Below, piece by piece: positions 3,799 through 5,007 of a DNA stretch of 6,176 bases. The stretch lies in the IMG/VR virus record IMGVR_UViG_2534682092_000012; one strand, given 5' to 3'. Below the pieces are notes generated by a model. It searched no databases and was not told where the DNA came from. It worked only from the letters and a program-made list of their open reading frames with translations. Source of the stretch: a virus (lineage: Duplodnaviria > Heunggongvirae > Uroviricota > Caudoviricetes). The number at the start of each line of letters is the position of its first letter. Position 1 is the first letter of the stretch. The position numbers and the translations under genes were made by a program.

Positions 3799-4560
3799 AT
3801 GGAGACTGTTTTTGACGCACTGAAAGCAATGGGAAAAGCCACATCCATAGAACTTGCTGCGCGACTTGATATCAGTCGTGAAGAAGTGCTGAACGAACTA
3901 TGGGAACTGAAAAAGGCTGGTTTTGTTGATAAAAGCGCGTACACCTGGCGTGTGGCTGATAACAACGTTCAGCAGGAACAGCCAGCGCAGGCAGAACTGC
4001 CGGAAGAAATCACCACAGCAACAGTAGCGAAAATCTCAGAGTGCGATTTAACCGCGACGATTGAACAACGAGGACCACAAACGGCTGATGAGCTGGCTAC
4101 ATTGTTTGGTACCACATCACGCAAAGTGGCTTCAACGCTGGCAATGGCAATCAGCAAAGGTCGTCTGATTCGCGTAAATCAGGGCGGTAAATTTCGTTAC
4201 TGCATACCGGGCGATAATTTACCAGCAGAGCCGAAAGCAGCATCGGTAGCGGAAACTGATGGTAAGGCCTTTCCTCATACCGCAGGTGTTGCGTTACCAG
4301 TACAGGAGGCTGCAACACAGGAAGATATTAAAACAGAAACTGTGGCGGACATTGTGCAGTCGCTGCCATCGTTTACTGAAACGCGAGCGGATGACCTGGT
4401 TTTACCATCACTGCATATGGCAAACCGCGAACTGCGTCGGGCGAAAAATCATGTCCAGAAGTGGGAGCGAGTCTGCGCCGCGCTGCGGGAGCTGAACAAG
4501 CACCGGGATATTGTTCGACAGATTACTGATTCTTCCCGCCGTGTTGTATCGGAAAAGTGA
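3799..4560 (+). CDS. Hypothetical protein with two tandem winged-helix-like segments and a basic C-terminal helix (conserved lambdoid-prophage protein of unknown function)
   Basis: Track ORF 3748-4560. The start is chosen at the ATG at 3799 ([43 protein letters not shown]), which has a GGGAGA RBS at 3785-3790 and does not overlap the DnaC-like gene. A second wH-like segment is [31 protein letters not shown]. The C-terminus is [28 protein letters not shown]. Confidence 0.7.
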
Positions 4561-4575
4561 TTGCCGGAGGCGCTT

Positions 4576-5007
4576 ATGGCAAAAGTATTTACACAAGAAG
4601 AGCGGGAAAAAATTAAAGGGCAGGTTGTTGAGCTAGTACGCCGGAGTGGGCGCGAGACGTTACGGCAACTGGAAGCCAAGACAGGTGCGACAAGATATCT
4701 GATGAGCGTTCTCGCCAGAGAGCTGGTTGCCAGTGGCGATGTATACAACTCTGGTTACGGGTTATTCCCGTCTGAACAGGCTCGTAAGGACTGGCAAAAT
4801 GCCCGCAAAAAACTATCCAGGGCAAAGGTGAAGAAACCATCTGTGGTTGATCCGGACCTTATCTGGTCATTACCAGACGGAGAAATACGCCGCTACGACA
4901 GGCGTCTGAACATAATCTGTCGCGAGTGCCGGAAGAGCGAAGTTATGCAGCGTGTGCTGGCGTTTTATCAGAATGGTTTTCGAGAGAGGCTTGGAGATCA
5001 GGGATGA
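4576..5007 (+). CDS. Hypothetical protein (144 aa), unknown function; possible winged-helix-like N-terminal region
   Basis: Track ORF 4561-5007. The start is chosen at the ATG at 4576 (MAKVFTQEEREK...), with a GGAGG RBS at 4566-4570. It is the last gene with host-like GC content before the compositional break. Confidence 0.65.
   Translation: MAKVFTQEEREKIKGQVVELVRRSGRETLRQLEAKTGATRYLMSVLARELVASGDVYNSGYGLFPSEQARKDWQNARKKLSRAKVKKPSVVDPDLIWSLPDGEIRRYDRRLNIICRECRKSEVMQRVLAFYQNGFRERLGDQG

Follow-up and report, generated by a model that had tools for sequence, protein, structure and literature searches.

What do the last two genes of the early replication block of a lambdoid prophage encode, and what might their products do? 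This question is raised by a 6,176-nucleotide stretch of viral DNA (IMG/VR record IMGVR_UViG_2534682092_000012), which we call the window. An earlier note on this DNA, made from the letters alone, pointed to two consecutive + strand genes at 3799-5007, between the gene of a helicase loader and a low-GC insert, and regarded their products as proteins of unknown function. The coordinates were confirmed, and so were both open reading frames (ORFs), here called ORF1 and ORF2. The protein sizes it gave, 254 and 144 amino acids (aa), had counted the stop codons; the proteins have 253 and 143 aa. The genes and their Shine-Dalgarno sequences, the latter read from the sequence, are as follows.

3785..3789, + strand: Shine-Dalgarno sequence GGGAG of ORF1, with a 9-nt spacer to the ATG at 3799
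3799..4560, + strand: ORF1, a 253-aa DUF1627 / YdaW-family protein; start ATG 3799, stop 4558-4560
4566..4570, + strand: Shine-Dalgarno sequence GGAGG of ORF2, with a 5-nt spacer to the ATG at 4576
4576..5007, + strand: ORF2, a 143-aa DUF977 / LygF protein of the Ren family (PHROG 142); start ATG 4576, stop 5005-5007

ORF1 and ORF2 together close the early-right (cro-cII-O-loader) block of a Rac/lambdoid E. coli prophage as its last two genes. Profile searches, structure prediction and a comparison of synteny across lambdoid prophages, all suggested by the earlier note, were carried out. The profile searches assigned ORF1 to DUF1627 and PHROG 630 and ORF2 to DUF977 and PHROG 142; neither protein is an orphan, and the Nin families (NinB, NinG/Rap and others) were absent from the Pfam and PHROG matches of both. 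Both families are already known and are among the commonest annotated prophage gene families in E. coli. The description as proteins of unknown function therefore stands only in part, for ORF1.

Relationship of ORF2 to lambda Ren

ORF2 matches Pfam DUF977 (PF06163) with 99.7 bits against a cutoff of 22.1 (E 2e-28), and its residues 1-135 cover positions 1-133 of the 134-position profile. DUF977 was called a winged helix by Kinch et al. 2009 (PMC2686095). ORF2 also matches PHROG 142, labelled 'Ren-like exclusion protein', over nearly its full length (E 2.3e-46). Lambda Ren (96 aa; ren, J02459 40280-40570) matches the same PHROG over its whole length (E 1.6e-41), and itself falls short of Pfam DUF977. 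When the DUF977 alignment (A1) was compared with the Ren alignment (A2) by hhalign, the probability was 96.4% (E 1.4e-9). The aligned parts are the winged helix (ORF2 residues 17-62) and the C-terminal helix (ORF2 residues 97-132), separated by a gap in which a basic segment of about 30 residues of ORF2 has no counterpart in Ren. Pairwise identity between the two proteins is detectable by BLASTP in the C-terminal 20 aa only (NIICRECRKSEVMQRVLAFY against NLVFKECRQSAAMKRVLAVY; 55% identity, E 2e-6). The two proteins share the motif ECRxSxxMxRVLA in this part, and N112, I114, E117, C118, S121, M124, R126 and L128 are invariant in a joint alignment (A4) of 38 DUF977 and Ren sequences. The joint membership of PHROG 142, the hhalign result and the shared C-terminal motif together show that ORF2 is a longer homologue of lambda Ren. 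The view of ORF2 as an uncharacterised protein therefore does not hold.

ORF2 is 47 aa longer than lambda Ren; the extra length, a basic helix and a disordered insert, lies between its winged helix and its C-terminal helix. In the AlphaFold2 (AF2) model of ORF2, for which DUF977 and Ren sequences were combined in the alignment, the mean predicted local distance difference test score (pLDDT) is 70.9. The model has a confident winged helix (7-62), followed by a helix (67-83), a disordered part (85-113, pLDDT below 50) and a C-terminal helix (116-139). The parts of ORF2 are as follows.

4594..4761, + strand: winged helix (aa 7-62), AF2 pLDDT 87-92, aligning to Ren residues ~8-50
4762..4908, + strand: insertion relative to Ren, comprising a basic helix (aa 63-90, net charge +7, containing KKLSRAKVKKP) and a disordered part (aa 91-111)
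4909..4971, + strand: C-terminal Ren motif (aa 112-132), N-x-I-x-x-E-C-x-x-S-x-x-M-x-R-x-L

A Foldseek search with the winged helix of ORF2 returned generic GntR/MarR/ArsR winged helices (best E 0.019). ORF2 is a member of LygF with no substantive difference: LygF of Escherichia phage vB_EcoS-683R6 matches it at 100% identity, and LygF of many lambdoid phages, for example mEp460 and Rac-SA53, at 90-95%. The name LygF comes from phage and Salmonella annotations without functional information, and in the literature it occurs as a label only.

ORF1 and the YdaW family

ORF1 matches Pfam DUF1627 (PF07789) with 325.5 bits against a cutoff of 28.1 (E 6e-98), with residues 88-242 covering the profile completely (1-155 of 155). 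It also matches PHROG 630, which carries no known-function annotation, at E 2.7e-131 (aa 1-249 on profile positions 1-252 of 253). These matches make ORF1 a full member of the DUF1627/YdaW family, and phage records name the pair ORF1 and ORF2 'putative YdaW family protein' and 'LygF'. Residues 1-151 of ORF1 are 99% identical to YdaW of the K-12 Rac prophage (ydaW, b1361; L003 5753-6313), whose gene likewise lies directly after ydaV. K-12 YdaW is a truncated fusion produced by the Rac deletion, in which these 151 residues are followed by 35 unrelated ones and the acidic linker and the C-terminal helix are missing, whereas ORF1 is intact. The YdaW family is small: an exhaustive search of 1.84 billion representative proteins yielded only 184 relatives of ORF1 at E <= 1e-3.

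The anatomy of ORF1 was derived from an alignment (A3) of 37 full-length DUF1627 representatives, down to 20% identity, and from AF2. The modules are as follows.

3799..3954, + strand: winged helix 1 (aa 1-52), the most conserved N-terminal module, net acidic; AF2 pLDDT ~78
3955..4038, + strand: linker 1 (aa 53-80), predicted disordered, pLDDT 31-44; 16-48 aa across the family
4039..4200, + strand: winged helix 2 (aa 81-134), basic, weakly Ren-like; family mean charge +4.2
4201..4344, + strand: linker 2 (aa 135-182), acidic, Pro/Ala-rich, predicted disordered, pLDDT 28-44
4345..4554, + strand: C-terminal module (aa 183-252), IPxFT..R.DDL..P followed by a long basic helix, the signature of the DUF1627 family

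The architecture expected of the YdaW family, namely one or more N-terminal winged helices, variable linkers and a conserved C-terminal helix, was found in ORF1 both in A3 and in the AF2 model. The model shows the topology H-E-H-H-E twice, at 1-52 and at 81-134, and a single long helix that spans 197-252 (pLDDT 68-86). The model as a whole is poor (mean pLDDT 54.8, predicted template modelling score (pTM) 0.23) because the underlying alignment was shallow; the sequences listed in it are at least 87% identical. In winged helix 1, Pfam HTH_20, Crp, TrmB and MarR match at aa 4-46, all under their gathering scores. The mean charge of this module in the DUF1627 family is -1.9, and that of its recognition helix is -1.35. 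In the region of winged helix 2, sub-threshold matches to Pfam FeoC (4e-4) and HVO_A0114 lie at aa 84-130. Linker 2 has a mean charge of -4.2 across the family and is 20-64 aa long. The full pattern of the C-terminal module in A3 is IPxFT..R.DDL..P....EIRRxK..L..LE..R.A.REL.KH, in which P190 and R213 of ORF1 are nearly invariant. The charge of this module is +2 in ORF1 and +4.2 in the family mean. It was found in 83 of 150 representatives, preceded by one, two or three winged helices.

The structural features that the earlier note had read from the letters are borne out by these results. They are the two winged-helix-like segments and the basic C-terminal helix of ORF1, the winged helix at the N-terminus of ORF2 (pLDDT ~90), and its basic KKLSRAKVKKP segment, which falls within the +7 helix. 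The note had also recognised no catalytic motif, and no catalytic domain was found in ORF1 or ORF2 by Pfam, NCBIfam, AF2 and fold searches, which gave only generic winged-helix folds, disordered linkers and a C-terminal helix. NCBIfam returned no informative match for either protein, and no significant relative of solved structure was found for either by sequence.

Could ORF1 be a paralogue of Ren? Its winged helix 2 matches PHROG 142 at E 3e-4 (aa 85-132), and 20 of 37 diverse members of the DUF1627 family match this PHROG, the best at E 4e-8. Comparison of DUF1627 with DUF977 and with Ren by hhalign gave a probability of only 11-25%, with winged helix 2 alone aligned, and pairwise BLASTP between ORF1 and ORF2 detected C-terminal similarity at E 0.33 only. 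The paralogue was therefore rejected, and we infer that ORF1 has an origin separate from that of Ren, apart from the weak winged-helix resemblance. Beyond generic winged-helix similarity, sequence, profile and fold searches found no homology of ORF1 to characterised proteins.

The number of winged helices varies within the family. Members P0422 and P0490 have three, and locus L012 has an extra 109-aa ORF (5663-5992), consisting of a winged helix only, between the loader gene and a full-length DUF1627 gene. Winged-helix number is therefore evolutionarily plastic in DUF1627. Two rare proteins, P0367 and P0377, combine an N-terminus that looks, judged by eye, like a YdaU-type (DUF1376) initiator with the C-terminal part of DUF1627. 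These are probably deletion products of degraded prophages and not functional fusions.

Abundance and selection

Both genes are widespread. By megablast, ORF1 had matches in 2,778 of 5,426 complete E. coli genomes (51%), with at least 80% of the gene covered in 1,309. ORF2 had matches in 4,153 (77%), with at least 80% of the gene covered in 3,991. One genome holds up to 9 matching places for ORF1 and up to 7 for ORF2. Strain 602354 has 100% identical copies of both, and 100% identical sequences of both are annotated in RefSeq. Against homologues of 52-94% amino-acid identity, the ratio of nonsynonymous to synonymous substitution rates (dN/dS) is 0.17-0.35 in ORF1 and 0.06-0.29 in ORF2, which shows that both genes are under purifying selection. 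These values, together with scores far over the Pfam gathering thresholds, mean that ORF1 and ORF2 are real genes and not chance ORFs.

Position of the genes and their neighbours

ORF1 and ORF2 lie between the following two genes.

3030..3776, + strand: DnaC-like helicase loader (ydaV-type); Pfam IstB_IS21 4e-19, PHROG 50 'DnaC-like helicase loader' 4e-82; RefSeq relatives are named ydaV
5201..6176, + strand: start of iteA (AAA ATPase, low-GC cargo), running off the window end; Pfam AAA 2e-30

The gaps are 22 nt from the DnaC-like gene to ORF1 and 15 nt from ORF1 to ORF2, and the stretch from the loader gene to iteA showed neither a promoter-like site nor, on the + strand, a terminator-like one. 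With these tight gaps and no such site between, ORF1 and ORF2 look co-transcribed with the replication genes. A longer form of ORF1 starting at the in-frame ATG 3748, used by one phage record, was rejected, as this start has no Shine-Dalgarno sequence and homologue lengths fit 3799: nearly all of the closest 120 database homologues are 243-257 aa long. The GC content of ORF1 and ORF2 is 0.46-0.53, close to the 0.48-0.56 of the replication genes, and that of the downstream region is 0.37-0.45. This agrees with the earlier description of both as conserved genes of backbone-like GC and not cargo. Rfam gave no match across the ORF1-ORF2 region, and repeat finders found no meaningful repeats there. 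The longest antisense ORF (4449-4748, - strand) and an ORF at 4926-5225 had no Pfam match.

In the closest complete genomes, the block sits in a prophage adjoining ompW, and the annotated order is ydaV, DUF1627, DUF977, iteA, iteS, followed by DUF968, RusA and the Q antiterminator. Relatives of iteA that are 99% identical are annotated 'anti-phage ATPase IteA', and the next gene is annotated 'S8 family anti-phage peptidase IteS'. From this annotation, the low-GC insert from 5201 appears to be a defence cassette. The literature search for IteA/IteS gave unrelated papers only.

We counted gene contexts at the 80 closest IMG/VR loci each for DUF1627 and DUF977, a sample biased to close relatives. 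The gene 5' of DUF1627 is a loader in 71 of 76 evaluable loci (DnaC-like in 66, P-like in 5), and the gene 3' of it is DUF977 in 74 of 75. The gene 5' of DUF977 is DUF1627 in 43 of 71 evaluable loci and an O-like initiator without a loader in 27. On the 3' side of DUF977, the gene matched none of our reference proteins in 78 of 78 evaluable loci. Among 73 loci, with DUF977 at least 91% identical, the first ORF on this side falls into at least 17 unrelated clusters. These include a QueH-like cluster (17), two small unknown families (12 each) and IteA (7), as well as a C5 methyltransferase, ParA-like, NUDIX and putative DUF262-like proteins (the last judged from sequence) and others. The slot directly after DUF977 (5008-5200 in the window) is thus a hypervariable cargo hotspot, and DUF977 is its upstream border. 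Both genes therefore occupy a place like that of lambda ren, as the earlier note had proposed: they are the last genes of the replication block, ahead of a variable region. Lambda ren, too, ends its cro-cII-O-loader block and lies on the same strand as that block. ORF2 differs from it in that it comes after DUF1627 and not straight after the loader.

The two genes are not tied to each other or to one type of replication gene. A profile search of genome contigs with a narrow alignment (A6) gave only 6 loci. DUF1627 follows a DnaC-type loader directly in the window, Shigella phage 75/02 Stx, L009, L011 and L012, and a lambda-P-type loader directly in PPompW phages, L010 and L013. The identity of DUF1627 does not follow the loader type: an 89% identical copy lies behind a P-type loader, and copies of 50-56% identity lie behind 86% identical DnaC-type loaders. 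In mEp460 and PhiR46_1, DUF977 is present and DUF1627 is not; the gene comes right behind the initiator in the former and lies in a different early region in the latter. DUF977 was also seen in a P4-primase-type context. DUF1627 occurs without DUF977 in the PPompW phages. In this sample, biased as it is, the two genes behave as independent mosaic modules.

Possible function of ORF1 and ORF2

We tentatively propose that both proteins are non-enzymatic, early-made counter-defence adaptors, Ren-like in the case of ORF2, and give this proposal a probability of roughly 0.4. The two proteins would be made early in lytic growth alongside the replication proteins, and as small adaptors they would stop abortive-infection or exclusion systems already present in the cell from responding to the replicating phage. 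ORF2 would do so in the way in which lambda Ren counters RexAB. Its invariant C-terminal amphipathic helix (N.I..EC..S..M.R.L) may be the target-binding surface, which the winged helix and the extra basic helix would hold on nucleic acid or on a partner. In ORF1, the conserved basic C-terminal helix may serve self-association or target binding, and the one to three winged helices of its family may be interaction modules.

Several observations are in line with this proposal. The predicted architecture of winged helix, flexible linker and C-terminal helix is non-enzymatic and adaptor-like. The position of ORF2, like that of ren, after the replication genes and before a variable region, also speaks for a Ren-like role. 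Toothman and Herskowitz reportedly found in 1980 that Ren lets lambda escape Rex exclusion, and ren is said to be defined by that resistance; a more recent study by Thomason and Court in 2022 is said to deal with Ren together with RexA and RexB. The homology to Ren narrows the possible function of ORF2. For ORF1, a genome-wide overexpression screen found K-12 ydaW among the prophage genes that block the retron-Sen2 toxin RcaT (bioRxiv 10.1101/2020.06.22.160242; restated in PMC11951105). This is the sole phenotype on record for K-12 YdaW, and we take it as a hint of counter-defence for ORF1. Since K-12 YdaW is truncated, the published phenotype concerns the two-winged-helix fragment only. Of the papers found to mention DUF1627 or DUF977, none is a functional study.

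Other points weigh against counter-defence. 'Ren-like exclusion protein' is an annotation label. No rexAB lies beside the repressor gene in the window, nor was it found in the DUF977-bearing phages inspected. The retron result was obtained by overexpressing a truncated allele, and the effect may be an indirect one. PADLOC gave nothing relevant, ORF1 has no detectable homology to Ren beyond the winged-helix fold, and its AF2 model is of the low confidence given above. Furthermore, the very basic ORF2 (isoelectric point (pI) 10) fits a plain DNA-binding regulator equally well.

This last point leads to another explanation, that ORF1 and ORF2 are ordinary winged-helix transcription factors that act on phage DNA and tune the expression of delayed-early genes or of the adjacent cargo. 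The individual winged-helix fold is common to both ORFs and MarR/ArsR/GntR-type regulators, profile matches are to winged-helix and helix-turn-helix (HTH) families, and the structural neighbours are nearly all transcription regulators. ORF2 carries its +7 basic helix, and winged helix 2 of ORF1 is basic too. In addition, K-12 YdaW appears in catalogues as a putative factor of the MarR type with unknown function (PMC4797297; PMC9308461). However, ORF1 reaches only 17.1 bits with MarR (cutoff 24.6) and 14.5 bits with MarR_2 (cutoff 27), and all other HTH matches likewise stay under the Pfam gathering scores, which counts weakly against such a role. The MarR layout, one winged helix between dimer-forming N- and C-terminal helices, was not seen in the low-confidence AF2 model of ORF1; the MarR-type dimerisation helices and ligand pocket are missing, and the domains are strung on disordered linkers. 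It also counts weakly against this explanation that winged helix 1, the best-conserved module of ORF1, is acidic including its recognition helix, and that no palindromes or repeats fit for operators were found in or beside the genes. Both genes keep their sequence when the replication genes before them and the cargo after them change, and this speaks against a dedicated local target. To our knowledge, Ren has not been reported to regulate transcription. We regard a role as transcription factors as unlikely, if still worth keeping in mind.

Two further explanations concern replication and the lysogen. As accessory factors, the proteins could work with the initiator, the loader or DnaB, for instance to modulate the loading of the helicase or to stabilise the O-like protein. 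The genes do not co-vary with the replication machinery, as seen in the independence of DUF1627 identity from loader type, and this argues against a dedicated partner among the loader and the initiator. Moreover, DUF977 is found directly after O-like initiators that lack a loader and in the P4-primase-type context, each gene occurs without the other, and the initiator-DUF1627 fusions look like deletion products. Lambda ren is also dispensable for P-lethality and replicative killing (PMC3640518). An accessory role in replication is therefore quite improbable. The word 'exclusion' in the PHROG label might also be taken to mean that the proteins defend the lysogen by superinfection exclusion. The category of PHROG 142 is 'moron, auxiliary metabolic gene and host takeover', and the genes adjoin the defence hotspot with IteA/IteS. 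However, Ren gives resistance to exclusion and is not known to exclude by itself. The genes are conserved and backbone-like in GC, not cargo-like. No promoter-like site of their own was found, and inside the lytic early operon they would be silenced by the repressor in a lysogen. In PADLOC-DB, ORF2 has no match, and ORF1 matches CARF/Csa3 models only weakly (E 2e-4 or worse), in their winged-helix part. This makes exclusion by these proteins very improbable.

The counter-defence proposal can be taken further. DUF1627 and DUF977 might form a widespread early-expressed counter-defence module of multi-winged-helix adaptors, which would mask the replication complex or bind effectors so that abortive-infection sensors stay silent. 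Rex-like systems would then be the target of ORF2, and retron-type toxins such as RcaT that of ORF1. We consider this extension speculative and rather unlikely. If it were true, most E. coli genomes would carry an anti-defence gene just 5' of the defence-cargo hotspot.

The practical weight of the assignments is small, as DUF1627 and DUF977/Ren-like proteins are already annotated in thousands of genomes. The DUF977/LygF family is now tied to lambda Ren at the profile level, and the intact YdaW family has a defined modular anatomy together with one published anti-retron-toxin phenotype. DUF977 as a marker of the upstream border of the cargo/defence slot could help to mine lambdoid prophages for defence genes. 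The remaining value lies in the biochemistry of Ren/DUF977 and YdaW and in the anti-defence hypothesis.

Other features of the window

The window is an early region of lambdoid type with an ordinary, textbook layout. The genes upstream of the loader gene are as follows.

635-1408, - strand: S24/LexA-type repressor (Pfam HTH_3 and Peptidase_S24)
1401-1616: cro-like gene
1613-2038: YdaT/cII-like gene
2046-3023: O-like initiator (PHROG 391)

Downstream of the repressor gene, a small ORF on the - strand (210-443) matches DUF1391, the YdaF-like protein of Rac, at E 3e-25. It occupies the place where lambda has rexAB, and no Rex-like gene was found at the repressor-adjacent position in the window.

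Among the complete E. coli genomes of the collection, none spans at least 80% of the window in one place. The immunity region (window 400-1700) is 99.5% identical in other strains, and the block from the replication genes through ORF1 and ORF2 to iteA is 99-100% identical in strains other than those sharing the immunity region. This is the mosaicism usual among lambdoid phages; the junction lies between the immunity module and the replication module.

The O-like initiator gene contains 15-nt iterons at 2387-2485 in five copies, which can alternatively be read as 2.5-3 copies of a 30-nt unit. The repeats encode a repeated DPSN/DPST peptide stretch. In lambda, the replication origin (ori-lambda) sits within O, and for this reason the iterons are probably the phage replication origin.

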